Below, in pieces: positions 3,990-27,746 of a stretch of DNA of 32,000 bases; position 1 is the first letter of the stretch, and the number at the start of each line of letters is the position of its first letter. The position numbers and the translations under genes were made by a program. This DNA comes from Delftia acidovorans NBRC 14950 (GTDB lineage: Bacteria; Pseudomonadota; Gammaproteobacteria; Burkholderiales; Burkholderiaceae_C): assembly GCF_001598795.1 (NCBI RefSeq), contig NZ_BCZP01000005.1, positions 300,001-332,000 of the forward strand. The letters run 5' to 3'. The notes beneath the pieces are model-generated. The model was given only the letters and a program-made list of their open reading frames with translations, was not told where the DNA came from and searched no databases.

Positions 3990-4055
3990 AGAGCGGGTGC
4001 AGGGCTGCCGTTTCGGCTAAGGTGAAGGCCTGTCCATCACCGAGCAGAGCAGCGC

Positions 4056-5066
4056 ATGCCAAGCACCGACTCAGACCCCGGCTCCATCACCCGCGTACAG
4101 GGCATCGAGGTAGGCCACCACACCGATGCCCGCCGGCCCACGGGCTGCACCGTCGTGCTGGCGCGCGGCGGCGCCGTGGGGGGCTGCGATGTGCGTGGCG
4201 CCGCCCCCGGCACGCGCGAGACCGACCTGCTGCATCCTTCCAACCTGGTGCAGCAGGTGCATGCCGTCATGCTCTCGGGCGGCAGCGCATGGGGGCTGGA
4301 CGCTGCCAGCGGCGCCATGCGCTGGCTGGATGAGCAGGGCATAGGGCTGGATGTGGGCGTGGGCCGCGTGCCCATCGTGCCGGCCGCCGTGCTGTTCGAC
4401 CTGGCGGTGGGCGACAGCCGCATCCGCCCGGGTGCCGATGCCGGCCATGCGGCCTGCCAGGCCGCCAGCGCCGCGCGGCCTGCCGAGGGCAATGTGGGCG
4501 CCGGCATGGGCGCCTGCGTGGGCAAGGTCTTCGGCATGGATCGCGCCATGAAGGGTGGCATTGGCACGGCCTCGCTCACCGTGCATGGCGTCACCGTGGG
4601 CGCGCTGATCGCCTGCAATGCCGTGGGCGATGTGGTCGACCCCCACAGCGGCGCGCTGCTGGCCGGCGCGCGCAGCCCCGATGGCCGCCAGCTGCACGAC
4701 ACCTGCCGTGCCCTGCTGCGCGGCGAAGAGCCCCGGCCGCTGCTGGCAGGCACCAACACCACCATCGGCGTGATTGCCACCGATGCACGCATCACCAAGG
4801 TCCAGGCCCAGCGCCTGGCCGTGGTGTCCCATGACGGCCTGGCACGCGCCATACGCCCCGTGCACACCATGAGCGATGGCGACACATTGTTCGCCCTGGG
4901 CACGGGTCTGGCCGAGCACTCGCTGGGCATGCTGACCCTGTCTGCCATGGCCGCTGAGGCCGTGGCCCTGGCCACGGTGCGTGCCGTGCTGGCCGCGCAG
5001 TCGCTGACCACGGCCGAAGGGCTGGAGCTGCCCTGTGCCAGGGAGCTGGCCGCCTGCCGGCCCTGA
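4056..5066 (+). CDS. P1 (S58/DmpA) family aminopeptidase
   Basis: VQGIEVGHHTD...TGCTVVL, GGCDVRGAAPGTRETDLL, and the autoproteolytic GTNTTIGVIATDA block followed by SHDGLARAIRPVHTMSDGDTLFAL. These motifs are typical of DmpA/ornithine acetyltransferase-fold peptidases. Confidence 0.8.
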   Translation: MPSTDSDPGSITRVQGIEVGHHTDARRPTGCTVVLARGGAVGGCDVRGAAPGTRETDLLHPSNLVQQVHAVMLSGGSAWGLDAASGAMRWLDEQGIGLDVGVGRVPIVPAAVLFDLAVGDSRIRPGADAGHAACQAASAARPAEGNVGAGMGACVGKVFGMDRAMKGGIGTASLTVHGVTVGALIACNAVGDVVDPHSGALLAGARSPDGRQLHDTCRALLRGEEPRPLLAGTNTTIGVIATDARITKVQAQRLAVVSHDGLARAIRPVHTMSDGDTLFALGTGLAEHSLGMLTLSAMAAEAVALATVRAVLAAQSLTTAEGLELPCARELAACRP

Positions 5067-5072
5067 CCGGGC

Positions 5073-6218
5073 TCAGGCCTGCAGCGCAACCGCCCAGGCG
5101 TCGTAGCCGTAGACGCCATCGGCATTGCCACCGGCGCGCAGCCAGTTGTTGCCGCGCGAGCCGATCTGAATCTCGCTGGTGCGCTGCATGCGCATGGCCT
5201 GGTAGCGCGCCAGGACCTCGGGCACCTGCTGCGGACCCGGGGCGGCATCCAGGTTGCGGGCCAGCACCACGGCGTCTTCGATGGCCATGCCTGCGCCCTG
5301 GGCCATGAAGGGCATCATCGGGTGGCAGGCATCGCCCAGCAGCGTGATGCGGTCCTGCGACCAGGCCGGCAGGGGATCGCGCTCGTACAGCGCGGTCTTG
5401 AGCACGCCATCGCAGGCGTCGAGCAGCGCCCGGGCGTCGGGATGGAAATCGGCGTAGAAGCCGCGCAACTCCTCGACGCTGCCGGGCGTGGTCCACGATT
5501 CCTCGTGCCAGGAATCCTGGGCCGTGGTGGCGAAGATGAAGGTGTCGCGCCCCTGGTTCAGCGGAAAGGTCACGATCTGGCTTTGCGGCGTGGCGCCCCA
5601 CCATTTGGTGAAGGCCTGGATGTCGGGCACATGGCGCACGCGCTCGGTGGGCACCACCGCGCGGAAGGCCACCACACCCGTGAAGCGCGGGCTCTCGGCA
5701 CCGAACAGGGCCGCGCGCACCACGGAGTGGATGCCGTCCGCGCCAATGAGTGCGTCCAGCCCGGCCACTTCGCTGCCATCGGTGAAGGCGATGTCCACGC
5801 CGTGCCCCGTCTGCGTGATCTGGCTGGCACGCTTGCCCAACTGCACCTGGTCCAGCGGAAAGGCATCGGCCAGCGCGGCCAGCAGATCGGCGCGGTGGAT
5901 GGTCAACTGCGGGGCGCCGTACTTGCGCTCGGCCTCGTCACCCATGGTCAGGCGCGAGGTTTCCTCGCCCGTGTCCCAGTTGCGGCTGATGCGGTGCGTG
6001 GGCCGGGCGGCGCTGGCGCGCACGGCGGCGGCAATGTCGGCGCCCAGGCCATCGAGGGCGCGCACGGCATTGGGCGTGAGGTTGATGTCCGCGCCCACGC
6101 GCAGAAACTGCCGGCTTTGCTCGAACACCAATACTTCATGCCCTGCCTGGTGCAGCGCATTGGCTGCCGCCAGTCCGCCAATGCCTGCTCCGACGATGCC
6201 TATCCTCAAACGCGCCAT
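5073..6218 (-). CDS. FAD-dependent aromatic-ring monooxygenase (salicylate / 3-hydroxybenzoate hydroxylase-like)
   Basis: N-terminal GxGxxG fold RIGIVGAGIGGLAAANAL and the FAD/substrate motif GDACHPMMPFMAQGAGMAIEDA. I chose the start at MARLRIG (6218), which is preceded by AGGAGA, rather than the ORF-track ATG at 6278. Confidence 0.85.
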   Translation of the reverse strand: MARLRIGIVGAGIGGLAAANALHQAGHEVLVFEQSRQFLRVGADINLTPNAVRALDGLGADIAAAVRASAARPTHRISRNWDTGEETSRLTMGDEAERKYGAPQLTIHRADLLAALADAFPLDQVQLGKRASQITQTGHGVDIAFTDGSEVAGLDALIGADGIHSVVRAALFGAESPRFTGVVAFRAVVPTERVRHVPDIQAFTKWWGATPQSQIVTFPLNQGRDTFIFATTAQDSWHEESWTTPGSVEELRGFYADFHPDARALLDACDGVLKTALYERDPLPAWSQDRITLLGDACHPMMPFMAQGAGMAIEDAVVLARNLDAAPGPQQVPEVLARYQAMRMQRTSEIQIGSRGNNWLRAGGNADGVYGYDAWAVALQA

Positions 6219-6385
6219 GATTCCTGTCTCCTGCTGGTGGGGTCTATTCGGTGATGCGCCCCGTGATCCGGAGCGCACCGATGCAGGACATTGTCTTTTT
6301 GACAGGCCTCAGGCCTCAACCTCCGCAAGGCCCGAATTGGGCACGATTCGTCCCCATCGGCGCCGGCACATGTGCGGCAGGCGCC

Positions 6386-8989
6386 TCAGTCCACGCGCCG
6401 CAGTTGCCCTTGCGCCAGCAGCTTGTCGCGCATGCGGCGCGTCATGGACTGGGTGCTGCCGTCGGTGGCCGTGAACAGGAACAGCGTCTGCTGCGGGCTG
6501 ACCCAGGTCAGCTGGGTGCGGATGCACTGCCGGGCGTTGGACAGTTCCACCCAGGTGCCCAGTGCCCAGTCTTCGGACACCACGGGAACCACCGGCGGCG
6601 GTGGCTCCAGGGGCAGCGCGGGCTCGGCAGGCATCGGGGCGGCTTCGCCACCGGCCAACGCAGCCTGCCCCGCAAGCCCAGCAAAGGCCTGCGGCGCTTG
6701 TGCAGCCGGGGTGGCCGGCAGCTCATCCTGCAGCGCCTCGGGCAGTTCCAGGTCCTGCTCGGTCAGCGCGCCGATATCGTCCGCCATCGGCTGCCGCACA
6801 TCGAGCGGCACCGGCAGGGAGGCCGCCACGCCAAACAAAGACTGCGGCAGACGGCCCGCCAGGGAGCCGGGCGTTGTCTGGCCAAGCGTTGCCGCACCAT
6901 TGGAGGAAGACAGGGACGCCAGCACCGAGTCCGACCCGTAGATGGTCGGCGGTATGGAGTCCAGATAAATGTCCACGCTCTCTATGGGCTGGCGGACCAC
7001 ACCGGCATCCAGCGCGTCCTGGTGCAGGCCGGCCAGGCGCGCGGCAAAGGCCTGGATTTCCTCTTCCGTACGCCCCACGCTGCGCAGGCCGGCGCGCAGC
7101 CGGGCCTGCAGCCGGGGTGCCAGCGCCACCAAGCGGTCGGTATCACGGCCCGCATGTGCCGACACGCTCCACAGCAGGCTGGGCACCAAGGCCAGATAGC
7201 CGCCGGGGTCCCGAGCCTCGCTGCCGTCCACGGGTTCCTGAACGCTGGCGATCACTTCGGCCCAGGGTCCCGTGGCGAATTCCAGAATGTCATCGGGCAC
7301 GCCCTGGGCGCTGGGCAGGCGCCGGATGGCGGCTGCAATCTGCTCGGCCCTGGGCATGGCGGTTTCGGGCCAGCGCGGGTCCACGCCCCGCCTTTCCACA
7401 TGCCTGAGCGCAGCCGAGACAGGCCCGGTCACCGTGCCGCCTTCCGGCATTTCGCCAGGACCCACGGGCTGCATGCCGCTGCCGCCCCAACCGTCGCGCA
7501 GTTGCTGCAGCACCGTGGCAAAGGCCGACGCATCGGCACGCTGCAGGGCCGCCAGCCGCATGGCGGCGGAATCGGCCACCTGCAGGAATTGACCGTAGCC
7601 CGGCGCGGATTCACTGTCGAACCACAGGCTGCGCGCCGTCAGCTCATCCAGCAGTTGGCGCGCGGGGTGGCTGCGGTCTTCAAAAAAGCGTGCGTCCTGG
7701 ACCACCAGCTGCTGCAGCAGCGGCTCCAGACGGCCCACGGTGCGCTGCACGGAAGGCAGCAGGCGCGTGTCGGCCGCCATGAAACGCATCATGCGCTGCA
7801 GGGTGTGCAGCGCGGCGCCGTCGTCGGCGCGCACGCCGGGTGCGGGCTCCTGCTGCTCGGGCGGCTGCAGCGCCTGCATCAGTTGCTCCAGCTGGGCCGA
7901 GTGGTGCTGCACGGACTCCAGTGCCATGCAGCTCAGCGAAGTCCAGCCTTCGGGCAGCGCCGCCAGCACGGTGGGTGCCGTCTCGCTGCCCTGCCAGGCG
8001 GTGGTCTGCAGGCGGCTTGCGCCGTCCATGGCCGGCGCAAACTGCCCGGGCACGGAATAGGCGGATGTGTGGGCCAGCGCCAACATGGAAGAAGGCGCCG
8101 CAGCGGGCGCCTCGCGGTGCGAATCCATCCAGCGTGGATCGGACAGCAGGGCCGCCACCAGGCGCCGCGTCAGCTCATCTTCCTGGGCCTGCTGGCCAAA
8201 GGAGCCATAGGCGCGGCTCTGGGCCACGGCATCGCCATAGTGGGAAGGTGCCCGCCAGCGGCTTTGCCCCGGCAGGTCGGAATGGCGGCGTCCCGCGTCG
8301 GGCGAAGGGGCCTGTACCGGCGCCAGGCCATAGGCCGCAGGCTGCACCCCCTTGTCACGCAGGGATTGGGCGATATGGCCGTACTCGGACACCAGCAGCG
8401 CACCCAGGTGCTCGCGCATGAAGCCCAGCCAGCAGGCGGCGGAGCCGGGGTCCACCCCGGTGTCGTCGATCACGCGCTGCAGCGCCTGCACATAGCTGTG
8501 GGGCCGCAGCGGATTGCGTTCGGGCTGGACACGGTCCAGGCCCTGGACGGCGCTGACCAGGGCATCGAGCTCGGCCAGCGCGATCTCCACCTGCGGCGCC
8601 ACATGCTGCAGCAGGCGCTGGTGGGCCAGCTGCGACTGCAGCACGGAGTCGTCCAGGAGGGAGAGGGAGGCGAAATCGGTGGTGCCGGGCACACCGGACG
8701 CACCGGACATGCCAGGCACAGGGGGCCAGGCAGCAGCGCCGCCGGATTGACCAAAGCATTCCAGCAGCGCCCGCCCATAGCCCTTGAGCATGGGCGCCCG
8801 GTGGCGGGCCAGCAGCTCCAGCGCCTCGGGGATTTCAGCGCGGCGCGGCAGGCCGGAGCCCGGCTGGTCGGCCTGCTCCATGGCATGCGCCGTGCGCTGC
8901 AGCAGCCGCAGGATCAGCGCCTCCGAGCCGCGAACAGCCTGCACCAGGCAGGCTTGCAACGCGGCAACAGAAACGGGTGGAGGATTCAT
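6386..8989 (-). CDS. Large (867 aa) Ala/Leu/Gln-rich protein of unknown function, probably DUF1631 family
   Basis: Long ORF with normal amino-acid composition, whereas the antisense 931-aa ORF is Arg/Gly/His-rich. The C-terminal block GTWVELSNARQCIRTQLTWVSPQQTLFLFTATDGSTQSMTRRMRDKLLAQGQL resembles the conserved DUF1631 C-terminus as I remember it. The family call is not verified. Confidence 0.7.
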   Translation of the reverse strand: MNPPPVSVAALQACLVQAVRGSEALILRLLQRTAHAMEQADQPGSGLPRRAEIPEALELLARHRAPMLKGYGRALLECFGQSGGAAAWPPVPGMSGASGVPGTTDFASLSLLDDSVLQSQLAHQRLLQHVAPQVEIALAELDALVSAVQGLDRVQPERNPLRPHSYVQALQRVIDDTGVDPGSAACWLGFMREHLGALLVSEYGHIAQSLRDKGVQPAAYGLAPVQAPSPDAGRRHSDLPGQSRWRAPSHYGDAVAQSRAYGSFGQQAQEDELTRRLVAALLSDPRWMDSHREAPAAAPSSMLALAHTSAYSVPGQFAPAMDGASRLQTTAWQGSETAPTVLAALPEGWTSLSCMALESVQHHSAQLEQLMQALQPPEQQEPAPGVRADDGAALHTLQRMMRFMAADTRLLPSVQRTVGRLEPLLQQLVVQDARFFEDRSHPARQLLDELTARSLWFDSESAPGYGQFLQVADSAAMRLAALQRADASAFATVLQQLRDGWGGSGMQPVGPGEMPEGGTVTGPVSAALRHVERRGVDPRWPETAMPRAEQIAAAIRRLPSAQGVPDDILEFATGPWAEVIASVQEPVDGSEARDPGGYLALVPSLLWSVSAHAGRDTDRLVALAPRLQARLRAGLRSVGRTEEEIQAFAARLAGLHQDALDAGVVRQPIESVDIYLDSIPPTIYGSDSVLASLSSSNGAATLGQTTPGSLAGRLPQSLFGVAASLPVPLDVRQPMADDIGALTEQDLELPEALQDELPATPAAQAPQAFAGLAGQAALAGGEAAPMPAEPALPLEPPPPVVPVVSEDWALGTWVELSNARQCIRTQLTWVSPQQTLFLFTATDGSTQSMTRRMRDKLLAQGQLRRVD

Positions 8990-9049
8990 GGCCCGAAGAA
9001 TACAGGCTCCAGCCCGTGCCGGAGGCGCTTTGAGGCTTGCCTTTGATGC

Positions 9050-13026: not shown

Positions 13027-14784
13027 ATGACACTGCAGACCCCACACGCCACCCCCTCCAGCCAGCGCCCCGATTCGGAGCTGCCACAGGACAGGTTGCG
13101 GTGGTCGGCCCTGGCGTGCGCAGCCCTGCTTTCCGCCTGCGCCAGCACCCCGCTGCCGCCATGGCCCACCACCTCCAAGCCCCAGGCGCCCGCCCCCACC
13201 CGGCCGGCCCCGGCCACCCCGGTGGTGCCCCAGGCGACCACGCAGCCCATCGCGCCGGCCAACAACCTGGTCCCCCTGCCCTACAACGCGGCCGTGGCTG
13301 CGCGCTTTCCCGATCCAGCCACCCGCTACGACACACCGGGCCTGGCACCGCAGCGCAACCAGTTCACCACGGCCAGCGAACTGTCTTCCTGGCTGAACAG
13401 CCAGGCCAGCAAATCCCTGGGCCGCGACACGCGCCTGGGTATCGTGCAGCCCGGCAGCTCGCAGCGCGGCAGCCCCATCCAGGCACTGGTGGCCACGCGC
13501 GCACCCGGCATTCAGCCGTCGGCGCTCTATGACAGCCGCCGCCCCACGGTCATGCTCGTGGCCGGCCAGCACGGCGACGAACCTGCGGGTACGGAGGCCT
13601 TGCTCATCATCGCCCGCGAGCTCGCTCCCGGCGGCCTGCTGGAGCCGCTGCTGCAGCAGATCAACGTGATCCTCGTGCCGCGCGCCAACCCCGACGCCGT
13701 GGAAGCCGGCACGCGCAATGCAGCCGATGGCACCGACATCGCCCATGACCACCTGCTCCTGAACACGCCGGAGGCCAAGGCCCTGGCCACGCTGGCGCGC
13801 GACTACCGCCCCGTCGCCGTGGTGGACCTGCAGGAATTCCCCGCCGCCAGCATCTTCCTGCAGAAGTACCAGGCCATACAGCGCTACGACGCCCTGCTGC
13901 AGTACTCGGCCGCGGCCAACCAGAATGAATTCGTGACCAAGGCTGCGCGCGAGTGGTACACGGCGCCGCTGCGCACCGCGCTGTCGCAGGCCGGGCTGAG
14001 CAGCGACTGGTACTACACCACCAGCCAGGATCTGCAGGACAAGTCCATCTCCATGGGCAGCCTCGCGCCCGATTCGCTGCGCAACGTCAGCGGGCTCAAG
14101 AACTCGGTGGGCTACCTGGTCAGCAGCCGTGGCTCGGACCTGGGCCGCGCCCACATCCAGCGGCGCGTGCATACCCTGGTCACCGCGTCCACACGCATGC
14201 TGCATTCCAGCGCCGAGCGCGCCAAGGACCTCACCCAGGTGCAGGCCTTCGTGGCGCGCGAGACCGCCTCCCTTGCCTGCCACCAGCAACTGGCCGTACT
14301 GGCCGAGCAGACCCCCGAGCAGCGCACCCTCACCATGATCCAGCCCGACACGGGCGCCGACCAGCAGGTGCGCGTGGACTGGAACGCTTCGCTGCAGCCG
14401 CGCACCACGCTGTCGCGCCCGCGCTCCTGCGGCTACTGGCTGTCCGCCAGCGCCCAGCCCGCCGTGGACAGGCTGCGCCTGCTGGGCCTGCAGGTGCTCA
14501 AGGTGGCCGAGCCCGGCCAGCTGCTGGCCGACTCGTACAACGAAGCCCGCTCGGCCACGCCCGCCAGCGGCGCCTATGCGCTCACGCGCGGCGCTGTCGA
14601 AGCGCCCGTGGGCAGCTACTACCTGACGATGAACCAGCCCATGGCCAATCTTGCCGCTGCGGCGCTGGAGCCGGACACGCCCTACAGCTACCTTGCACGC
14701 GGCCTGGTACCCACGATGACCGACATGGCGCGCGTGATGGCGCCTCCTTCGGTGGTTTTCGAGGAAGAAGACGACGCCGAATGA
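13027..14784 (+). CDS. M14-family zinc carboxypeptidase-like lipoprotein
   Basis: Lipobox LLSAC after MTLQTPH... (ATG 13027). Pro/Ala-rich linker. Zn-binding HxxE context VMLVAGQHGDEPAGTEALL, then ILVPRANPDA. Confidence 0.7.
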   Translation: MTLQTPHATPSSQRPDSELPQDRLRWSALACAALLSACASTPLPPWPTTSKPQAPAPTRPAPATPVVPQATTQPIAPANNLVPLPYNAAVAARFPDPATRYDTPGLAPQRNQFTTASELSSWLNSQASKSLGRDTRLGIVQPGSSQRGSPIQALVATRAPGIQPSALYDSRRPTVMLVAGQHGDEPAGTEALLIIARELAPGGLLEPLLQQINVILVPRANPDAVEAGTRNAADGTDIAHDHLLLNTPEAKALATLARDYRPVAVVDLQEFPAASIFLQKYQAIQRYDALLQYSAAANQNEFVTKAAREWYTAPLRTALSQAGLSSDWYYTTSQDLQDKSISMGSLAPDSLRNVSGLKNSVGYLVSSRGSDLGRAHIQRRVHTLVTASTRMLHSSAERAKDLTQVQAFVARETASLACHQQLAVLAEQTPEQRTLTMIQPDTGADQQVRVDWNASLQPRTTLSRPRSCGYWLSASAQPAVDRLRLLGLQVLKVAEPGQLLADSYNEARSATPASGAYALTRGAVEAPVGSYYLTMNQPMANLAAAALEPDTPYSYLARGLVPTMTDMARVMAPPSVVFEEEDDAE

Positions 14785-14869: not shown

Positions 14870-14946
14870 CTGCCCGTAGCTCAACCGGATAGAGCAATTG
14901 CCTTCTAAGCAATAGGTCGGGGGTTCGAGTCCCTCCGGGCAGGCCA
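14870..14946 (+). tRNA. tRNA-Arg (anticodon UCU)
   Basis: Hand-folded cloverleaf of 77 nt: acceptor CTGCCCG/CGGGCAG, D arm GCTC-AACCGGATA-GAGC, anticodon arm ATTGC-CTTCTAA-GCAAT, T arm GGGGG-TTCGAGT-CCCTC, discriminator G, encoded CCA. Confidence 0.95.
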
Positions 14947-16409: not shown

Positions 16410-17036
16410 ATGACCAAGCCCTACGTCCGCCTGGACAAGGACAACGCCGCCGTGCTGCTGGTAGACCACCAGACCGGCCTGCTATCCCTTGTACGCGACA
16501 TCGACCCGGACAAGTTCAAGAACAACGTGCTGGCGCTGGCCGACATCGCCAGCTATTTCAAGCTGCCCACCATCCTGACGACCAGCTTCGAGAACGGCCC
16601 CAACGGACCGCTGGTGCCGGAGCTCAAGAGCCAGTTTCCCCAGGCGCCCTACATCGCCCGGCCCGGCAACATCAACGCCTGGGACAACGAGGACTTCGTC
16701 AAGGCCGTGAAGGCCACGGGCAAGAAGCAACTCATCATCGCCGGCGTGGTGACCGAGGTGTGCGTGGCCTTCCCCGCACTGTCGGCCATCGAGGAGGGCT
16801 TCGACGTCTTCGTGATCACTGACGCCTCCGGCACCTTCAACCCCATCACCCGCGATGCGGCGTGGAATCGCATGTCGCAGGCCGGCGTGCAACTGATGAG
16901 CTGGTTCGGCGCTGCCTGCGAACTGCACCGCGACTGGCGCAACGACGTGCAGGGGCTGGGCACTCTGTTTTCCAACCACATCCCCGACTACCGCAACCTG
17001 ATCACGAGCCACACCATGCTCACCCAGGGCAATTGA
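16410..17036 (+). CDS. Isochorismatase-family (YcaC-like) cysteine hydrolase
   Basis: AAVLLVDHQTGL (catalytic Asp context) and INAWDNEDFVKAVKATGKKQLIIAGVVTEVCVAFPALSA (Lys and nucleophile Cys). AAGGAG lies upstream of ATG 16410. Confidence 0.85.
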   Translation: MTKPYVRLDKDNAAVLLVDHQTGLLSLVRDIDPDKFKNNVLALADIASYFKLPTILTTSFENGPNGPLVPELKSQFPQAPYIARPGNINAWDNEDFVKAVKATGKKQLIIAGVVTEVCVAFPALSAIEEGFDVFVITDASGTFNPITRDAAWNRMSQAGVQLMSWFGAACELHRDWRNDVQGLGTLFSNHIPDYRNLITSHTMLTQGN

Positions 17037-17046
17037 GGAGAAGACC

Positions 17047-17736
17047 GTGAGCACACCCCAAACCATCGCCAACTTCAACGGCGCCCGCCCGGTCATCGAT
17101 CCCGACAATGTGGCAATGCTGCTGATCGACCATCAAAGCGGCCTGTTCCAGACCATCAAGGACATGCCCTTCACCGAGGTGCGTGCCAATGCCACCACAC
17201 TCGCCAAGGTAGCGACACTGGCGAAGATCCCTGTCATCACCACCGCATCGGTGCCGCAGGGTCCGAACGGCCCCTTGATCCCCGAGATCCACCAGTACGC
17301 CCCGCATGCCCGGTACGTTGCGCGCAAGGGCGAGATCAACGCCTGGGACAACCCGGAGTTCGTCGCTGCCGTCAAGGCCACTGGGCGCAGGCAGCTCATC
17401 ATCGCGGGGACGATCACCAGCGTCTGCATGGCCTTTCCCAGCATCGCCGCAGTGCACGAGGGCTACCAGGTCTTCGCGGTGATCGACGCCTCGGGGACCT
17501 ACTCGAAAATGGCGCAGGAGATCACGCTGGCGCGCATCGTGCAGGCTGGTGTCGTGCCGATGGACACGGCGGCGGTGTGCTCGGAGGTGCAAAAGACCTG
17601 GAACCGTGAGGACGCGTTGCAGTGGGCGCAGGCCTACAGCGCAGTCTTCCCGCCGTACCAGTTGCTGATCGAAAGCTACTCCAAGGCGCAGGAAGTGGCC
17701 AGGAACGGTGAGCAGCTGGATTCGCAACGCACCTGA
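17047..17736 (+). CDS. Isochorismatase-family (YcaC-like) cysteine hydrolase, paralog of the upstream gene
   Basis: GTG start at 17047, preceded by GAGGAGAAG. VAMLLIDHQSGLF and INAWDNPEFVAAVKATGRRQLIIAGTITSVCMAFPSIAA. It lies 10 nt after the stop of the previous gene. Confidence 0.85.
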   Translation: MSTPQTIANFNGARPVIDPDNVAMLLIDHQSGLFQTIKDMPFTEVRANATTLAKVATLAKIPVITTASVPQGPNGPLIPEIHQYAPHARYVARKGEINAWDNPEFVAAVKATGRRQLIIAGTITSVCMAFPSIAAVHEGYQVFAVIDASGTYSKMAQEITLARIVQAGVVPMDTAAVCSEVQKTWNREDALQWAQAYSAVFPPYQLLIESYSKAQEVARNGEQLDSQRT

Positions 17737-17770
17737 CTGCGGTAGCACGGCACGGGTACGAGGCCGCTTG

Positions 17771-18057
17771 CCCAGGCCAGGGGCAGAAGTCATTACACTT
17801 GTCGCCAAGCCGAAAGGCCCGGTGTGTCGAAGCACCTTACCAGTAGCGTTTGCGACCCCCAACGTCAAGCGGGGTTCTGTCATGCCCGAATTCCTGAGGC
17901 GGACGTGCCTGTGCACGCCCCTTCCAACGGTTTTGGGCGGGATGGGGCTCTCCGTGAGGACGCCCGCACGGCTACTGACGTGCTTCGAACATCCCGTCCA
18001 CCCGTCTCGTGTCGAAGCGGTGCGGGTGGCTTCCTTGAATCCAGTAGGAGCCAAGCG
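17771..18057 (+). promoter_or_regulatory. Candidate structured 5' leader / cis-regulatory RNA, copy 1
   Basis: An invariant 59-nt block containing a GCC-GAAA-GGC hairpin (17809-17818). Conserved hairpins at 17854-17876, 17898-17923 and 17998-18029. A TTCCT/AGGAG helix (18031-18050) that sequesters the SD. No reading frame is conserved between the two copies. Confidence 0.45.
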
Positions 18058-18498
18058 ATGACCGCATCTTCACCCGCTTCCCAACCACCCCCTTCCCTCA
18101 CCACTCGCCAAGCGGGAAAAGCCAAGGCTTGCCGCAGGCATCGCAGGACCCACTGCACCATGCAGACCGCGCTGGCCTTCATGCAGCGATCCCTGGAATT
18201 CCTGGTGCGCGTGGCAGGCGAACACGACAACGCCAACTACGACGACGACGGCACCGATGCCGATGTGGAACTGGCCGTGGAACTGGCGCTGGAGCACATC
18301 AGGCGCCTGCGCGCAGCGGAGCCCATGGAGCGCGAGGCCTTCGCCCAACACTGGAACATGGCGGCGGCCGCTATCCGGCTGGGGGCGCTTGCCTACGGCC
18401 GCACCGACAGCACCTACTACCGCATGCTGAGCTTTGTGCAGCAGCAGTTCGACGTATCGGCGGCCATGGTGGAATTTGTGGATGAGGCGCAGGACTGA
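18058..18498 (+). CDS. Hypothetical small protein (146 aa; basic Cys/His N-terminus plus acidic helical body), copy 1
   Basis: AGGAG 7 nt before ATG 18058. High GC3 from codon ~35 onward. Near-identical paralog 880 nt downstream. I recognise no family. Confidence 0.7.
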   Translation: MTASSPASQPPPSLTTRQAGKAKACRRHRRTHCTMQTALAFMQRSLEFLVRVAGEHDNANYDDDGTDADVELAVELALEHIRRLRAAEPMEREAFAQHWNMAAAAIRLGALAYGRTDSTYYRMLSFVQQQFDVSAAMVEFVDEAQD

Positions 18499-18519
18499 GA
18501 CCCCGGCCCCGGGTGGCGC

Positions 18520-18672
18520 TCAGCGCCAGCAGTCCTCCACCGTTCCCAAGGGCGAGGGCGAGATGCCTTCCTGCTTGAAGCCGCATGTCCAGGGCCGGAT
18601 GGCGCGCCGGCACCTCGCGAGTGTGTCAGCCGGACTGCAGGCTTGCGGCGTCTCCCAGGCCAGGGGCAGAAG
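18520..18672 (-). pseudogene. Fossil 3' end of a pilE-like pilin gene (no start codon, no N-terminal pilin domain)
   Basis: The minus-strand frame reads ...CGFKQEGISPSPLGTVEDCWR*, versus the intact PilE C-terminus ...LGVKGISPLGTVGDCWR*. The frame is open for only 50 codons, contains no Met, and is closed upstream by a stop at 18673-18675. Confidence 0.6.
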
Positions 18673-18937
18673 TCATTACACTTGTCGCCAAGCCGAAAGG
18701 CCCGGTGTGTCGTAACACCTATCTGGAGAGGTTGCAGCCCCCACCTTCAAGCGGGGTTTTGTCATGCCCAAATTTAAGAGGCTGGTGCGCCCGTGCGCGC
18801 CAGCCTGCATGGTTTCGGGCGAGATGGGCCTACCCGCGAGGATGGCCGCACGGCTCCGGACGTGTTACGAACATCTCGTCCACCCGTCGCCCTTCGTAAG
18901 GCAGCGTGTGGTGCTCAATGAGCCCGGAGCAAGAACC
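18654..18937 (+). promoter_or_regulatory. Candidate structured 5' leader / cis-regulatory RNA, copy 2
   Basis: Same 59-nt block (18654-18712). Hairpins at 18736-18758, 18780-18805 (11 bp) and 18880-18911. A TGCTC/GAGCA helix (18912-18931) that sequesters the GGAG SD. Confidence 0.45.
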
Positions 18938-19378
18938 ATGACCGCATCTTCACCCGCTTCCCGACCACCCCCTTCCCTCACCACTCGCCAAGCGGGAAAA
19001 GCCAAGGCTTGCCGCAGGCATCGCAGGACCCACTGCACCATGCGGACCGCGCTGGCCTTCATGCAGCGATCCCTGGAATTCCTGGTGCGCGTGGCAGGCG
19101 AACACGACAACGCCAACTACGACGACGACGGCACCGATGCCGATGTGGAGCTGGCCGTGGAACTGGCGCTGGAGCACATCAGGCGCCTGCGCGCAGCGGG
19201 GCCCATGGAGCGCGAGGCCTTCACCCAACACTGGAGCATGGCGGCGGCCGCCATTCGGCTGGGGGCGCTTGCCTACGGCCGCACCGACAGCACCTACTAC
19301 CGCATGCTGGGCTTTGTGCAGCAGCAGTTCGAGGTGTCGGCGGCCATGGTGGAATTTGTGGATGAGGCGCAGGACTGA
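18938..19378 (+). CDS. Hypothetical small protein (146 aa), copy 2
   Basis: GGAG 8 nt before ATG 18938. It has 7 amino-acid differences from copy 1. It is convergent with pilE, with a 20-nt gap between the two stops. Confidence 0.7.
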   Translation: MTASSPASRPPPSLTTRQAGKAKACRRHRRTHCTMRTALAFMQRSLEFLVRVAGEHDNANYDDDGTDADVELAVELALEHIRRLRAAGPMEREAFTQHWSMAAAAIRLGALAYGRTDSTYYRMLGFVQQQFEVSAAMVEFVDEAQD

Positions 19379-19398
19379 GACCCCGGCCCCGGTGGCGC

Positions 19399-19812
19399 TC
19401 AGCGCCAGCAGTCCCCCACCGTTCCCAGGGGCGAGATGCCCTTCACGCCCAGGGCGTTCAGGGTGTAGTCGCCGCAGCGCCTGTCCGATGCCTGGCGGCC
19501 TGTGCGCGTGGCCTTGAGCGTGTAGCCGCCGTCATTGGCGGTCGTGGCCATCGTCAGGGTGTAGTGGCCGTTCTCGGACTTGTCTCCCCAGGGCAGCCTG
19601 AGGTTGGCGACGGAGCTTGTGTAGCCGCCGTTCTGGGCCCGCCAGCGCTCCTGCCGGGCGGCGGCCTCGCCCAGCAGGCTTTGCGCTTCCACGCGCCGCG
19701 ATCGCAGCACGTATTCCTGGTAGGAGGGGTAGGCGATCGCCGAAAGAATGGCGACCACCGCCACCGTGATCATCAGCTCGATCAGCGTGAATCCATGTAG
19801 CTTGCTGCGCAC
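19399..19812 (-). CDS. pilE: Type IV minor pilin PilE
   Basis: GTG start at 19812, preceded by AAGGAG. Prepilin N-terminus (V)RSKLHGFTLIELMITVAVVAILSAIAYPSYQEYVLRSRRVEAQ...AAARQERW closely parallels P. aeruginosa PilE. C-terminal Cys pair. Confidence 0.9.
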   Translation of the reverse strand: MRSKLHGFTLIELMITVAVVAILSAIAYPSYQEYVLRSRRVEAQSLLGEAAARQERWRAQNGGYTSSVANLRLPWGDKSENGHYTLTMATTANDGGYTLKATRTGRQASDRRCGDYTLNALGVKGISPLGTVGDCWR

Positions 19813-19892
19813 GCATTTCTCCTTGGGGGCCCGCAGGGCCAGCCAGACGGCCGGGGCCGGCAGGCCCCTGTGTGTAGTGGATGGGATGGCGG

Positions 19893-22800
19893 TCACGGGT
19901 TCGCTGGCTGGCGGCGCCAGCTCTGTCGCCCCCGGTCCACTCCGCTGTTGATATCGTCGCCCCCGGTCTTGACTGGGTCTCCCGCCCCGCTTTGCTTTCC
20001 GCTGGAGTCGAAGATCTTCGCGCCGCTGATGGTGGGCCTGCCCGGCCCCACCTCGCGGCCGTTGACCTGCTGGCCTGCCAGGTTGTCGGAGGCGTTGAAG
20101 ATGCCGTCGCCGTTCACATCGAAGGCGACATAGTCGGTCTTGCCCCCGGTGTCGGGATCGATGGCGTAGATCGTGCTGGCCAGGCCTGCGGAGCAGGGGT
20201 CGCCCAGCGGTGGCCGGATGGAGGTGAACACCAGACCCCGCCCGTACAGGCTCATGTCGTAGACCAGTCTTTCTCCATCGCGCGGCAGATCGACGTACCA
20301 GCCCCAGCTGTGCACATTGGAGTCGGCGGTGCTGGTGGCGTCCTTGTACCAGGTGACCGGGTTGGCCGACAGGGCGAACTTGCCCGGAAAGCCGCTCACC
20401 TGGGTGAACTGCTGGGCCTGCAGATCCCCGCGCCCCTTGCCGGCGGTAGGCAGCGGCTGCGGCGCAGTCGTGGCGGGTGTGCCGTAGCGATCCCAGATAC
20501 CGAACACCGATTGCCGGCGCATGTCCAGCTTGTCGTCATCCGTCATGAAGCGGCCCGTGCCGAAGGCCACCACATCGCCCTTGCCGCTGGAGTGCCGCAC
20601 CACGTAGGGTGCGGTGGTGATGGACAGCCGCTTGCCGCCGCTGCGTTCGGACTCACGTGCCACAAAGAACAGTTGCGCATTCCATGAGCCGCTGGCACCA
20701 CTGGCCAGGTCTACGCGCCATACATTGCCCGCAAGATCACCGGCATAGGCCACGTCCACCTTGCCATCGCCGTTGTTGTCCACCACGGCGGCGCGCGACA
20801 GGCCGTTTTTCGGCGCAGGCAGCGCGCTCAGCTCTGCGGCCGTCATGCCTGCCGCGAAATCAAAGCGCCGGATGACCTCGCCACTGGAGACATCCAGCAC
20901 AAACAGGCTGGACTCGCCGGAGGCGCTGTTCGACGCCTGGTAGCCATTGGACAGGAATACCACCCACCTGCCCTTGGACCGGCCGGCATCGTTGAGCCGC
21001 GCAACGACAGGCGCGGGCATCGAGTAACCCATGCGTTCGTCCTGTTCAACCCCGAACTCCCACAGCAACCGGGGGGAGGTGGGGTCCGTGACGTCCAGCG
21101 CAAAGACCTGCCGCCCGCCCGCACCCAGGCTGCCGACCAGCACCCTGTGCCAGGCGTTGCCGAAGTAGACATCCGAGACCACGGGCGTCCCGTCCACGAA
21201 GTAGCGGTGGGGAGCGCCGCCCGCGCCATACCGGGACGCCAGGACATTGAGCGAATCCTTCACGCCCGATGGAATGAAGGCGAACTCCTCCTTGCCCGAT
21301 GCCGCGTCGAAGGCGTGCAGCATGCCGTCGTTGGCGCCCACATACAGCATCTCCTTGGTCGCCTGTTTCGCGGCAAAGGCGGCATAGGTGGTGCTGCCCT
21401 CCAGCTTGTCCGCGGCAGAGGCGCGGTACAGGCCGCCCTTGACCCGTACCAGCGAGGAATTGACGATATCGCCCAGCACATTGGGCTTTCCACTGTCCAG
21501 GGGCTTGCGCACGCGCAAGTCATCGCGCACCTCGCCACGCAGGAACTCGATGCGCTTTTTTGCCTGGCCATCGGCGGAGTTCGTGGCCGGGTCCGTGTTG
21601 AGCACGGCCAGCCAGGACGCATCGGAGCGCTGCCCGCTGAGACTGGAGTACGTGAAAGGGCTCAGCGACACGGCACTGCCGGTCCTGCTGGGATAGTAGA
21701 TCTTGCGGTCATCGGCGGACCGCGCCGACAGGAGTTCCGCCGCGCTCCACACCAGCGTTCTGTCGCTGGTGGTGAGCTTCTCGCGGATGACATCGCCGCT
21801 CCAGTACTGGACCTCGAACGTGGTCCGGTACAGGTCGGCGCCTTCGCCCAGTGTCGCAGTGGGCATGTCCACGCTGACCGCCGTCACGGAACTGATGCTC
21901 TGCAGGATGTCGTTGAACGCCTTGGTCAATTGGTCCTTGAGCGTGCCGGCATTGGTCACCAGAAAATAGTTGTCCGGATCTCCCGTGATCTTGGAGGGGT
22001 CGCGGTCCGGCACACCGTACTTGGCGGCATACCACAGCGGTCCCTTCAGGAAGCTGCCCGCGTCGGTCGCATTGCCGGGAGTGAAGCTGCGGGTGGCCGT
22101 GAGTCCCAGGTTCGTGCATTCCGTGCGCTGCTGGGCCGAGATGCTGCCCCGGCAGTAGCCCGGATCGCGATTGGGTGGCGTGTTGTAGGCGTAGTAGGCC
22201 GAGGCCGTGTCCTTGTCACGCACCTCCAGGTACATGCCGTCCTTGGTGGTGCCCGAGATCACATAGCCCATGTGCTGTCCCAGGCCGCCAGCGGCGTATT
22301 CGGACACCATGTCGATCTTCACCTTGCCATCGGCCTGCAGCGCGACCGTGTAGCGCGCGATGGCGTCCATGTCATGGTCGGCGCCCTGCTCCACGTCCTC
22401 GTAGTTGATGCGGAACTCCGCATAGGGCCGCCCGCCATTGACCGAGGCATCGATGTCCGCCTTGCCCGTGTTGGCAATGTTGACCACGTAGTAGTCGACG
22501 ATCTGGTTGGTCGGCGTGAAGACCGCATTGTTCACGGTGCTGCCGCCGGCACTGCCGGAGACGGTCTTGGCAAACGGCGCAATGGTCACAAAGCGTTTGC
22601 CGCCGATCGGAAAGCGTATTTCCGGCAGCGGTGACGCAATGGCCACGGAGTAGGTCCTCAGCGCATTCTTGCCCTGGCTGTTGCCGAACATGGCATTCCT
22701 GGCGCCGAAACGGGCCACACCGGCGGCATAGTAGGTGCCTTCCTTGCTGGGCTCCTCGGGAGACAGGCCGCGCGCCCAGGACAGGTCTGCAATGGTCTTG

Positions 22801-25011: not shown

Positions 25012-25802
25012 GGCATCAGATTCCTCAGGGTAAGCGTGCTGGTGGCCAGTTGCAGCAGGGGGCCGGCATTCGCATCGCATCGGGCCGCGGCGCCGCCCAG
25101 TTGCGCCCAACGCTCGCAGACGGTGGAGGCCATGCCCTGCGTCACCTTGCCGGAGCTTTCCAGCAAGAGGGCAAGGCGCAGGGAACGGATGGTTTCCTGC
25201 TGCCCGGGCAACGTGGCCGCGAAGGCATCGACCCTGCGTATCGCGCCGGGCGCTGTCTGCCGATCGATGCCGAACTCGAAATGCACCGCCCGCACGCCAT
25301 CGGCGAGCGGCACAACCTCCTGCGCTGCCCGGCAGACCAGCACACCACTTTCAACGGTGTATTTCTCCGCGAACATGCCGGTCGCCGGCGCCGGAGCGTC
25401 ATAGGGGCCGGCGGCTCCCAGGTTCGCGGGCGTGCCCGCACAATCGGTTTCCGCAGCGTCCCGGGGCTGGAAGCGAAGGCAGATGCTCTGCGCGTCAGCC
25501 GCGTAGAGCGCCTGTCCCTGGGCGAACTGGCAGCCGTTGGGATGGGGCGAGGAATCGGCAGGAAATGCGTCGAACATCGCCTGCGAAGGGTCTCTCCTGT
25601 AGCCTGCCTTGGAGAACTCGGAGTCCAGCACGGCCAGCGCCAGCCGGCTGTTGCCGAGGTTCTCGCTCTGCCCCACGCGAAAACCGAAGCTCGACAGCCC
25701 CTGCATGTAGATGGTGGTGGCAATCAGCACGAGGAACAGGCCGATGGCCAGCGCCACCATAATCTCCACCAGGGACATGCCCGCCTGTGACGGCATGCGC
25801 AT
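25008..25802 (-). CDS. pilW: Type IV pilus minor pilin PilW
   Basis: Short leader plus hydrophobic segment: MRMPSQAG/MSLVEIMVALAIGLFLVLIATTIYMQ. Operon position fits. The start is uncertain; upstream in-frame ATGs at 25868 and 25880 would overlap pilV. Confidence 0.75.
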   Translation of the reverse strand: MRMPSQAGMSLVEIMVALAIGLFLVLIATTIYMQGLSSFGFRVGQSENLGNSRLALAVLDSEFSKAGYRRDPSQAMFDAFPADSSPHPNGCQFAQGQALYAADAQSICLRFQPRDAAETDCAGTPANLGAAGPYDAPAPATGMFAEKYTVESGVLVCRAAQEVVPLADGVRAVHFEFGIDRQTAPGAIRRVDAFAATLPGQQETIRSLRLALLLESSGKVTQGMASTVCERWAQLGGAAARCDANAGPLLQLATSTLTLRNLMP

Positions 25803-25830
25803 GCGGCACGCCCGTGCGTCCGGCCCGTGC

Positions 25831-26352
25831 TCAAAGCCGCGACCGCAGCGTGAATGTGCAAAATTCATTGTCGCTTCCATCCAGACATTGGCCTTTCTTG
25901 ACCGGCCAGGCCACCGTCACGGACACCAGGCCATCGGCATCGGCGCTCACGGCGAAGGAGGTGTCGATGTGGTCCGCGGTGAGATCGGGCACCAGCTTGC
26001 GGGCCCGCTCGCCCCAGCAGGCCAGGCGCTGCGCCCGCGGCTGCGGCAAAGGCTGGCAGGCCGCAGGGGCCGCGGGCATCGCGGCCCCCTGCAGCTTCTG
26101 ATAGCCGGCCAGTTCCTCCACGGGCACACCCTTCGCGTCCAGGACCGTGGCCGTATCCCCCCGCAGGGTCTCCAGCAGTTCGGAAGCCAGCATGGATGCC
26201 ATCTGGCGCCGCTCGGTATCCACGGTGTATTCAATGGCACGCACATGGATGCGCACGGCGCCCAGCAGCCCCACGGCCACCAGCAGCACGGCGACGAGTA
26301 CCTCGATAAGGCCTGCGCCGCGTTGCCTGCGAGAAGAAAAAGGAATGGACAT
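25831..26352 (-). CDS. pilV: Type IV pilus minor pilin / modification protein PilV
   Basis: MSIPFSSRRQRG/AGLIEVLVAVLLVAVGLLG...IEYTVDTERRQMASMLASELLETLR parallels P. aeruginosa PilV. An alternative start at 26376 would overlap the upstream stop (TGATG). Confidence 0.8.
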   Translation of the reverse strand: MSIPFSSRRQRGAGLIEVLVAVLLVAVGLLGAVRIHVRAIEYTVDTERRQMASMLASELLETLRGDTATVLDAKGVPVEELAGYQKLQGAAMPAAPAACQPLPQPRAQRLACWGERARKLVPDLTADHIDTSFAVSADADGLVSVTVAWPVKKGQCLDGSDNEFCTFTLRSRL

Positions 26353-26375
26353 GTTGCAGACCCGTTGCATGCGCA

Positions 26376-26888
26376 TCAGCAACTGCCGCCGGCAGGCAGC
26401 CGCTGCTGGCGCACAAGCCCGGCGCGAGTCACTCTCAGGCAGTGCATGCGCGTGGCATGGCGAGCCGTGACGGTCAGCGTGTACAGCGTGCTGGCGCCGG
26501 AGAACTGCCTGGCGGTCCCCGTGGTTTCGAACAGGACGCCCTGGGAAGAATCACCGGAGGGCGACACGGTCACGGCATCAGGCACCCAGGCCTCGCGCAC
26601 CAGTTGCCCCCCCGACTTGGCGGACCATGTCTGCCCCGTGCCCACGAAGCTGCTTTCCACCCGTTTGTAGACCGCTTCGGAGCGAGCCAGCTGCAGCAAC
26701 GACTGCAACTCGAGCGCAGCCGAGCTGACGCGCTGGTTGGCTATTTGGACGATGAAGGAAGGAGCGGCCAGAGCGGCCAGAATCGCGATCAGCGCCACCA
26801 CGACCATCATCTCGATGAGGGTGAAGCCACGGGGCCGTTGCCACCTGCCACCTGGACAGCCGTTGCGTGTGTAACCGGGATTTTTCAT
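26376..26888 (-). CDS. GspH/FimT(FimU)-family minor pseudopilin, first gene of the minor-pilin operon
   Basis: ...RPRG/FTLIEMMVVVALIAILAALAAPSF...ELQSLLQLARSEAV is characteristic of the FimT/FimU N-terminal region. Confidence 0.8.
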   Translation of the reverse strand: MKNPGYTRNGCPGGRWQRPRGFTLIEMMVVVALIAILAALAAPSFIVQIANQRVSSAALELQSLLQLARSEAVYKRVESSFVGTGQTWSAKSGGQLVREAWVPDAVTVSPSGDSSQGVLFETTGTARQFSGASTLYTLTVTARHATRMHCLRVTRAGLVRQQRLPAGGSC

Positions 26889-27338: not shown

Positions 27339-27415
27339 TGGGGTGGCTGATGGGGCTCGAACCCACGACAACAGGAATCACAATCCTGGACTCTACCAAC
27401 TGAGCTACAGCCACC
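27339..27415 (-). tRNA. tRNA-His (anticodon GUG), copy 1
   Basis: The reverse complement folds as G(-1)+GTGGCTG acceptor, D arm GCTC-AGTTGGTA-GAGT, anticodon arm CAGGA-TTGTGAT-TCCTG, T arm GTGGG-TTCGAGC-CCCAT (G.U at the outer pair), discriminator C and CCA. TATAAT (27429-27434 on the minus strand) lies 13 nt upstream. Confidence 0.95.
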
Positions 27416-27669: not shown

Positions 27670-27746
27670 TGGGGTGGCTGATGGGGCTCGAACCCACGAC
27701 AACAGGAATCACAATCCTGGACTCTACCAACTGAGCTACAGCCACC
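27670..27746 (-). tRNA. tRNA-His (anticodon GUG), copy 2
   Basis: Sequence identical to copy 1. TAGAAT (27760-27765 on the minus strand) lies 13 nt upstream. Confidence 0.95.

Follow-up and report, generated by a model that had tools for sequence, protein, structure and literature searches.

Why should two copies of a tandem repeat be identical in one block, poorly alike in the next and nearly identical again in a third? This question is raised by a module in a 32,000-nt stretch of Delftia acidovorans NBRC 14950 (contig NZ_BCZP01000005.1, positions 300,001 to 332,000 of the forward strand; hereafter the window), where two units of about 880 bp stand head to tail between metabolic (isochorismatase) genes and a pilus operon. 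According to our analysis, the diverged block appears to encode a structured leader RNA, and each unit is on balance probably a self-contained antisense leader cassette of the c4/CI type, which would normally head the early or replication operon of P4-type integrative islands and has here been duplicated next to the Delftia minor-pilin operon. The coordinates of the features are collected in Table 1.

A repeat finder and MAFFT alignment delimited the units at 17771-18566 and 18654-19446. Both open with the same 59-mer and carry an open reading frame (ORF) of 146 aa whose ATG codons stand at 18058 and 18938; the respective periods are 883 and 880 nt. Between the 59-mer and the ATG, the leaders (17830-18057 in unit 1, 228 nt) are 69% identical in the multi-sequence alignment and 76-77% identical in the ungapped blocks of the repeat finder. 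The identity of 100% over the 59-mer then returns exactly at the ATG to 99% over the N-terminal 102 nt, 97.1% over the core coding sequence (CDS) and 96.5% over a 58-nt tail, after which it decays; ORF 1 and ORF 2 differ by 11 substitutions (4 synonymous and 7 non-synonymous) and no indels over 441 nt. The geometry, periods and substitution counts of the initial annotation were thus all reproduced, and the mosaic profile that it described is real, as a careful alignment gives uneven and not uniform divergence. The same two-unit arrangement with unit-specific differences was found in two independent NCBI assemblies of Delftia acidovorans-like strains (L001, GCA_016405945.1; L006, GCA_002193035.1), where the units are flanked as in the window, by two isochorismatase genes on one side and by a ComP_DUS-type minor pilin gene, followed by PilY1, on the other. 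The presence of the two units in both of these assemblies shows that the duplication is genuine and was not created by assembly. The generic risk that attaches to any repeat of about 0.9 kb is the sole point in favour of a collapsed or expanded repeat, the probability of which we regard as negligible, since the two assemblies share the two-unit structure with unit-specific leaders and single-copy strains have recombinant CDSs, as real arrays would give.

The leader evolves more slowly than the gene behind it and, judged from sequence comparisons, appears to surpass every other part of the module in conservation and functional importance. Its unit-2 version shares 92% identity with the leader of a metagenome contig (L003), which also adjoins a pilin gene, and 87% with that of Delftia MMO-42 (L007); the corresponding values are 77-78% for the core CDS and about 60% for the N-terminal part, with a synonymous divergence (dS) of 0.5-0.6. 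Among strains whose CDS and flanks differ by 2-3%, neither leader type varies at all (100% identity across five genomes for unit 1 and across three for unit 2). A protein-coding function of the leader was ruled out, as the frames differ between units and homologues by non-3n indels.

Folding of 11 aligned sequences with RNAalifold gave a consensus of 62 pairs, 20 of which have compensatory double changes. Paired cells make up 96.8% of this fold, compared with 86.6% in column shuffles (none of 500 reached the observed value) and about 40% with the partners slid, and the z-scores of single-sequence folding are -3.9 for unit 2 and -3.2 for unit 1. Many G-U pairs occur on the plus strand, which indicates that the RNA strand is that of the ORF. 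When the two units of the window are compared, seven pairs of the consensus fold and two of an alternative fold have changed on both sides and are still paired, only four pairs are broken in one unit, and differences are twice as frequent in unpaired as in paired columns. In the consensus fold, a long-range helix, P2/P3, links the 5' and 3' thirds of the leader. On its own, the latter can also fold into a Y-shaped domain, made of a closing stem, a GNRA hairpin and a hairpin with an invariant 5-bp stem (GCACG/CGUGY; in unit 1, 17966-17970 with 17979-17983) showing an 8-nt loop. This alternative fold is 99% paired, with three compensatory pairs in the closing stem and none of 500 shuffles reaching it, and the Y shape is the minimum free energy structure of the isolated domain in five of five variants. 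The initial annotation had suggested that the leader was free to diverge; this is contradicted by conservation above that of the CDS across species, invariance among strains and a fold supported by covariation.

Within the 59-mer, the promoter-proximal part is strain-specific; a -10-like TACACT (17794-17799) and the RNA 5' end CAAGCCGAAAGGCCCGGTGTGTCG, which is invariant in the family, also lie there. Its last (3') 24 nt are invariant across most family members, and the P1 hairpin (GCC-GAAA-GGC) lies within it at 17809-17818 of unit 1. A U-run follows hairpin P7 in some variants of the family; no U-tail follows the Y-shaped domain in the window. A covariance model of the leader (R1) finds exactly two copies within the window. 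Rfam 15 holds no family for this RNA: a scan at gathering thresholds gave only three tRNAs, and no Rfam riboswitch model matched. The leader likewise had no blastn match in phage and plasmid collections. Matches to a 16-mer in 15 viral contigs and, with one mismatch, at 13329-13344 in the window were rejected by the covariance model and are attributed to chance.

The 8-nt loop holds the most variable element of the leader, which we call box B. It differs in 12 of 12 distinct family members between invariant flanks, and its complement occurs twice per leader, as box A in the 5' strand of helix P3 and as box C abutting or overlapping the Shine-Dalgarno sequence in all variants. As RNA, the A/B/C sets of the window read CAGUAGC / GCUACUGA / CAGUAG in unit 1 and UCUGGAG / GCUCCGGA / CCGGAGC in unit 2. 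For the 12 specificities, the longest stretch of B-C complementarity is on average 6.25 nt in cognate and 3.62 nt in non-cognate combinations, with duplex energies of -9.1 and -4.6 kcal/mol, respectively. The cognate B-C combination is the best or joint best in 11 of the 12 rows (permutation P<=5e-6), and the cognate B-A combination in all 12 is the best. The earlier suggestion that the leader was driven to diverge stays plausible for unit 1, where the changes are largely compensatory and the switch of the A/B/C set is complete.

Table 1. Coordinates of the module and of the pilin gene that flanks it (positions in the window).
Feature	Position	Strand	Remarks
59-mer, unit 1	17771-17829	+	identical to 18654-18712, period 883
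Structured leader RNA, unit 1	17806-18029	+	helices P1-P7; covariance-model hit 17788-18063, 257 bits
Box A, unit 1	17841-17847	+	CAGTAGC, 5' strand of long-range helix P3
Y-shaped 3' domain, unit 1	17935-17999	+	closing stem 17935-17943 with 17991-17999, GNRA hairpin, box-B hairpin
Box B, unit 1	17971-17978	+	GCTACTGA, hypervariable 8-nt putative antisense box between invariant CCGCACG and CGTG
Box C, unit 1	18042-18047 (feature 18042-18050)	+	CAGTAG, overlaps Shine-Dalgarno AGGAG 18046-18050
ORF 1, 146 aa	18058-18498	+	four-helix-bundle protein (AlphaFold2 model)
Pilin 3'-end remnant, unit 1	18520-18567	-	reads GISPSPLGTVEDCWR*, carried along in duplication
Inter-unit spacer	18567-18653	+	
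59-mer, unit 2	18654-18712	+	-10-like TACACT 18677-18682; P1 hairpin 18692-18701
Structured leader RNA, unit 2	18689-18911	+	covariance-model hit 18671-18943, 294 bits
Box A, unit 2	18722-18728	+	TCTGGAG
Y-shaped domain, unit 2	18817-18881	+	contains box B
Box B, unit 2	18853-18860	+	GCTCCGGA, in Y-shaped domain
Box C, unit 2	18924-18930	+	CCGGAGC, contains Shine-Dalgarno GGAG 18926-18929
ORF 2, 146 aa	18938-19378	+	CDS largely converted to unit-1 type in the window strain
ComP_DUS-type minor pilin gene	19399-19896	-	convergent with the module; last 48 nt are the repeat tail

Further members of the family came from a DNA-pattern scan of metagenomes and viral contigs and from the contexts of distant protein homologues (L008, L009, L011-L014, the IMG/VR contigs L031 and L032, and L033-L036). 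In L009, the leader lies in a classic island with the order transfer-messenger RNA (tmRNA), P4-type integrase, int-alpA RNA, AlpA, leader, 79-aa gene, 124-aa gene, Toprim primase and AAA-type helicase-like ORF. The leader of L013 and L014 is followed by an 82-85-aa gene and then a gene for an HTH_36 protein, and in L008, L033-L035 and L036 by a gene of about 72-78 aa and, as the second gene, a homologue of the window ORF; in L008 a DnaG zinc ribbon comes next. Upstream in L033/L034 are ANT/ORF6N and Rha genes, and the IMG/VR contig L031 carries AlpA. These gene contexts place the family at the head of the early or replication operon of integrative, satellite-like elements, and in every member the leader stands directly upstream of a start codon. 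The Delftia copies lack the gene of about 75 aa and have the leader joined straight to the four-helix-bundle gene; they are apparently an orphan cassette that has been kept at its locus across species and domesticated.

The islands hold at least two structured RNAs, given that an int-alpA RNA (RF02996) lies beside the new leader in L009 (3751-3816, minus strand, 38.2 bits, above the gathering score) and, below that score, in L013 (4653-4724, minus strand, 29.6 bits). In L033 (3062-3997) and L036 (1242-1754), the leader is translated within annotated "proteins" of 311 and 170 aa, which are probably in-frame extensions of the gene of about 72 aa.

The initial annotation could not assign the module to any known system. 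This statement is superseded, as the architecture matches that of a c4/CI-type antisense leader cassette from integrative islands, and by its sequence features the module can be assigned to this class as a structurally new, uncatalogued variant, distantly related to sRNA-Xcc1. An antisense box complementary to one upstream and one downstream site in the same transcript characterizes the C4/CI functional class and was found here; the position at the head of an early/replication or antirepressor operon, equally characteristic, was found for the family, with the window copies as orphans. The c4 RNA of phages P1 and P7 (immI, icd/ant) is reportedly cut from the leader of the operon that it controls, and its loops are said to pair with a target that covers the site where ribosomes bind at the first gene. 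This target reportedly recurs upstream, and P1 and P7 are heteroimmune through matched differences. A similar arrangement is seen in the A/B/C boxes and in the two Delftia units of unlike specificity. However, there is one 8-nt box here instead of the two short boxes of c4, the Rfam C4 model is unmatched, and the gene behind the new leader is not icd/ant, though ANT/ORF6N and Rha genes occur nearby in L033/L034.

The CI RNA of P4 is cut from the untranslated leader of the replication operon and pairs with seqA upstream and seqC downstream (as summarised in PMC4825925). Common to both systems are the position in the leader of the replication (primase) operon of an integrative, satellite-type element and the A-B-C order (seqA/seqB/seqC), and the host elements of the new family have a P4-type integrase, AlpA and a primase. 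The window RNA is much larger, with about 225 nt of structure; P4 CI acts by premature transcription termination, whereas the overlap of box C with the Shine-Dalgarno sequence suggests translational masking. In IsrK-orf45-anrP of the Salmonella prophage Gifsy-1, a leader RNA with short and long isoforms gates, by alternative pairing, the access of ribosomes to the first small ORF (PMC4825925). In contrast to the situation proposed here, IsrK activates translation in trans, and the isrK model is unmatched in the window.

The small RNA (sRNA) sRNA-Xcc1 lies 5' of symE and co-oriented with it in Xanthomonas integron cassettes (bioRxiv 10.1101/2025.06.18.660453), upstream of an ORF6N protein in APSE phages, and in a five-copy tandem array with a period of about 382 bp in a Xylella genomic island (PMC12189769). 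By analogy, this literature seems to fit the c4/CI-type antisense class. The window domain shares with sRNA-Xcc1 the Y-shaped fold of a closing stem and two hairpins, followed by CCACCC, the position upstream of a co-oriented small gene in mobile DNA, and the tandem arrays. The difference is that sRNA-Xcc1 is a free-standing 88-nt RNA with a U-tail and the domain here is embedded in a leader of about 225 nt. Two sub-threshold matches to the sRNA-Xcc1 model, in unit 1 and L011, fall at the same alignment position.

In the mechanism that we propose, each cassette would consist, in this order, of a promoter, the structured leader of about 225 nt, a Shine-Dalgarno sequence and the small 146-aa ORF. 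Invariant arms would display box B in the hairpin loop of the Y-shaped, sRNA-Xcc1-like domain, from which it may pair with box C and thereby mask the ribosome-binding site of the ORF. In the full-length leader, box A would compete for box B and sequester it in cis. Released by processing or partial termination, the Y-shaped domain with its box B may act in trans on transcripts of the same specificity.

Several observations weigh against this antisense mechanism. Consensus scans of 17650-19500 gave neither a sigma-70 promoter nor an intrinsic terminator, so that the putative positions of the -10 element and the transcription start site follow from family conservation only (YAnAnT 6-7 nt 5' of CAAGCC, with TGn in six variants). 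The covariation support consists of counts on 10-12 sequences gathered by similarity. Of the models for known RNAs related to P4, C4 (RF01695) and isrK (RF01394) were unmatched at E<=10 in 17700-19500 and at E<=5 in nine related loci, and the match to sRNA-Xcc1 (RF02221) is weak (unit 1, 17936-18006, 30.3 bits; L011, 26.8 bits; gathering score 53), with none reported for unit 2. No island genes were found near the window copies among the large ORFs scanned, which places the Delftia cassettes outside any recognisable island, and the window protein had no match in Pfam, NCBIfam, PHROGs or the PDB in profile or fold searches. In L009 (leader at 2198-1931, minus strand), box C (CCCGGAG) misfits its own box B, GCGGAATC; as the sole such family member, it fits the unit-2 box B of the window over 7 nt at -15.1 kcal/mol. 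This mismatch could reflect a recombinant leader or cross-targeting.

The A/B/C pattern is also equally compatible with a purely cis-acting switch, the main rival, in which the leader would be an attenuator or riboswitch-like element whose box B would pair either with A, leaving the ribosome-binding site free, or with C, masking it, according to a ligand, the temperature or translation; neither a trans-acting RNA nor an immunity function would then exist. In its favour, two mutually exclusive folds are each supported by covariation, the element always lies directly 5' of a start codon, and a binding pocket could be built from its conserved core of several helices and GNRA loops. We nevertheless consider it rather unlikely, because a cis switch has no need of hypervariable A, B and C boxes between invariant flanks, a pattern characteristic of specificity determinants, because the genes behind the element vary from one element to the next, and because it is found in early operons of mobile elements with a B-loop domain that resembles a trans-acting sRNA family. 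The description of sRNA-Xcc1 in integron cassettes, together with its weak match here and the repeated units of an ORF plus a conserved element, would also recall a gene-cassette array of the integron type. Such an array is very improbable: no integrase domain was found among the large ORFs of the window that were scanned, both units carry the same ORF, and the repeat junction is a fragment of the pilin gene and not an attC site, though no formal attC search was made. A bolder version of the antisense model, in which the leaders form a new family of programmable antisense immunity RNAs of P4-type islands in Burkholderiales and their relatives, each a scaffold of about 225 nt whose 8-nt specificity loop matches two target boxes, Delftia has domesticated two hetero-specific copies as a chromosomal tandem array that silences in trans the early operons of matching incoming islands or satellites and so excludes them by RNA, and the sRNA-Xcc1 arrays of Xanthomonas and Xylella are of the same kind, is in our view unlikely as it stands and is offered as speculation.

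The antisense model leaves the mosaic profile to be explained, and here strain comparisons are informative. The repeat arose in situ, as the junction holds a fragment of the flanking pilin gene: the tail of the repeat corresponds to the last 48 nt of the convergent gene, and head-to-tail copies with such a fragment at the junction are the hallmark of a tandem segmental duplication. The intact pilin gene end reads VKGISPLGTVGDCWR where the unit-1 remnant reads GISPSPLGTVEDCWR, and the remnant has a 6-nt GGCGAG tandem insertion (18556-18562) that adds Ser-Pro to its reading. A pilS-like cassette for antigenic variation was ruled out, as the duplication takes in no more of the pilin 3' end than these 48 nt. 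Unit 1 of L001 and L006 is also preceded by a 77-nt copy of the spacer, 91% identical, which extends the duplicated segment there to about 882 nt; the window is without 55 nt of this copy on the unit-1 side, the loss lying between short CCCAGG repeats.

Between the units of L001 and L006, identity is 91% in the spacer, 94% in the N-terminus and 93% in the tail (dS 0.08-0.095), with 100% in the 59-mer and about 69% in the leader; the less constrained parts thus differ by 6-9%. Twelve CDS sites are fixed between the units in these two strains, and unit 2 of the window has the unit-1 state at 10 of them; the conversion tract begins between 18937 and 18956, i.e., at the ATG. Copy number among strains is one or two, and the single-copy strains L010 and L015 are crossover products with a unit-1 leader, a core CDS of the unit-2 type and the pilin flank. 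L010 has the unit-1 leader and N-terminus together with a core CDS (99.7%) and tail (100%) of the unit-2 type, its crossover lying in the interval 18141 to 18164; in L015, an array like that of the window has collapsed in a similar way. Patchy gene conversion, which the initial annotation had offered as one explanation, is borne out by the swapped diagnostic sites and by these crossover products.

In a more distant relative, L002 (5772-5907, 7689-7909), a 151-nt deletion in the leader removes box B and the Y-shaped domain, and a 340-aa gene is inserted between the unit with the deleted leader and a decayed, partial second copy adjoining the pilin gene. This decay and the rearrangements suggest that the duplication is old. 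The hybrid leader of L002, with a 5' part of the unit-2 type and a Shine-Dalgarno region of the unit-1 type, indicates that recombination among leader types does occur, and its order cannot arise from a simple deletion between units 1 and 2.

We propose that tandem duplication of an orphan cassette beside the minor-pilin operon took 48 nt of the pilin gene along, and that the copies now have different A/B/C sets. Homologous recombination would keep the promoter/5' end and the CDS near-identical and would collapse the array in some strains, with the leaders staying distinct. The mosaic profile then reflects three forces, namely strong purifying selection on the RNA, recombinational homogenisation of the promoter and CDS, and a conversion barrier in the leader, which is possibly mechanical (25-30% divergence), selective (a partial tract breaks the A/B/C match) or both. 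Conversion tracts and unequal crossover between direct repeats of about 0.9 kb are shared with other tandem paralogues under concerted evolution; the difference is that homogenisation stops here precisely at a putative functional RNA whose inner parts must co-vary, which would give the profile its sharpness.

The leader of one unit may instead have been imported from another Delftia lineage or island by allele replacement through the invariant 5' 24-mer and the CDS as homology arms, an alternative about the origin of the difference alone, with which the functional model can coexist. In its favour, the leaders of unit 2 and L003 agree at 92%, with only 78% for their CDSs, identity breaks sharply at both leader ends, and the hybrid leader of L002 would be in line with such exchange. 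Import seems possible but somewhat doubtful, since the conserved block coincides exactly with the RNA, for which purifying selection accounts without transfer, the right-hand homology arm ACCATGACC is very short, and the unit-1 leader is nearer to unit 2 than to any other family member found. If a hypothetical gene had simply been duplicated in tandem not long ago, and an intergenic leader without function had since decayed neutrally, the head-to-tail geometry and the fragment of the flanking gene at the junction would be accounted for. This reading is contradicted by the compensatory substitutions in the leader, its conservation above the CDS between species and its invariance among strains, and it has, in our opinion, hardly any probability.

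The ORF behind the leader is a real gene of 146 codons, as indicated by its ratio of non-synonymous to synonymous substitution rates (dN/dS, 0.3-0.5), its homologues, the homology of its N-terminus and its predicted structure. An exhaustive profile search found 67 clusters of relatives of 125-170 aa, and AlphaFold2 with an alignment of 44 sequences gave a confident four-helix bundle (predicted local distance difference test, pLDDT, 87). AGGAG or GGAG lies 7-8 nt 5' of the ATG, and the divergent homologues L003 and L007 preserve the frame throughout, the first 34 codons among them. Homology across the relatives extends to this N-terminal stretch, whose basic motif RQAGKAKACRR aligns with AREAVKAKPCRK-type motifs of distant homologues. 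A Foldseek search of the model against PDB and BFVD returned generic four-helix bundles only, none at E<=0.001, and the relatives likewise had no match in Pfam, NCBIfam, PHROGs or PDB sequences. A scan of genome contigs with strict protein patterns gave one further species-level locus, L007. The NCBI call for the Delftia gene starts at Met35 and gives 112 aa instead of 146, omitting 18058-18159 and 18938-19039.

Around the module, only 20 nt separate the stop codons of the convergent ORF 2 and pilin gene (19378-19399); a terminator-like hairpin was not found there, and transcription from the module may run into the pilin gene in antisense. Directly upstream lie two isochorismatase-family paralogues (16410-17036 and 17047-17736, plus strand; about 72% nucleotide identity over a 173-nt core), which are an older tandem duplication. 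A tRNA-Arg(TCT) gene (14870-14946, plus strand) stands just upstream of the block of LysR, isochorismatase genes and module; with no integrase beside it, nothing indicates that this block is an island that entered at the tRNA. Two tRNA-His(GTG) genes with equal scores, 331 bp apart (27339-27414 and 27670-27745, minus strand), form a tandem tRNA duplication; in L007 the same pair lies 2.2 kb from the module, and the pilus operon is absent there. Three large ORFs with a high GC content at third codon positions had no Pfam match at E<=0.001 (4037-5245, minus strand, 402 aa; 6251-9043, plus strand, 931 aa; 25711-26667, plus strand, 319 aa).

In conclusion, an unexplained repeat becomes a testable regulatory device, a structured RNA family absent from Rfam 15 with a statistically supported three-way A/B/C address code that changes between otherwise similar elements. 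If the antisense model is true, annotation could be corrected where the leader is now translated as spurious ORFs and the 146-aa gene truncated to 112 aa, and a mechanism would be at hand for the enigmatic sRNA-Xcc1 family with its tandem arrays. The Delftia module would then be a natural case in which selection on co-adapted RNA boxes sets the boundaries of gene conversion, and RNA immunity of the P4 CI and P1 c4 type would extend to a large group of betaproteobacterial integrative islands.

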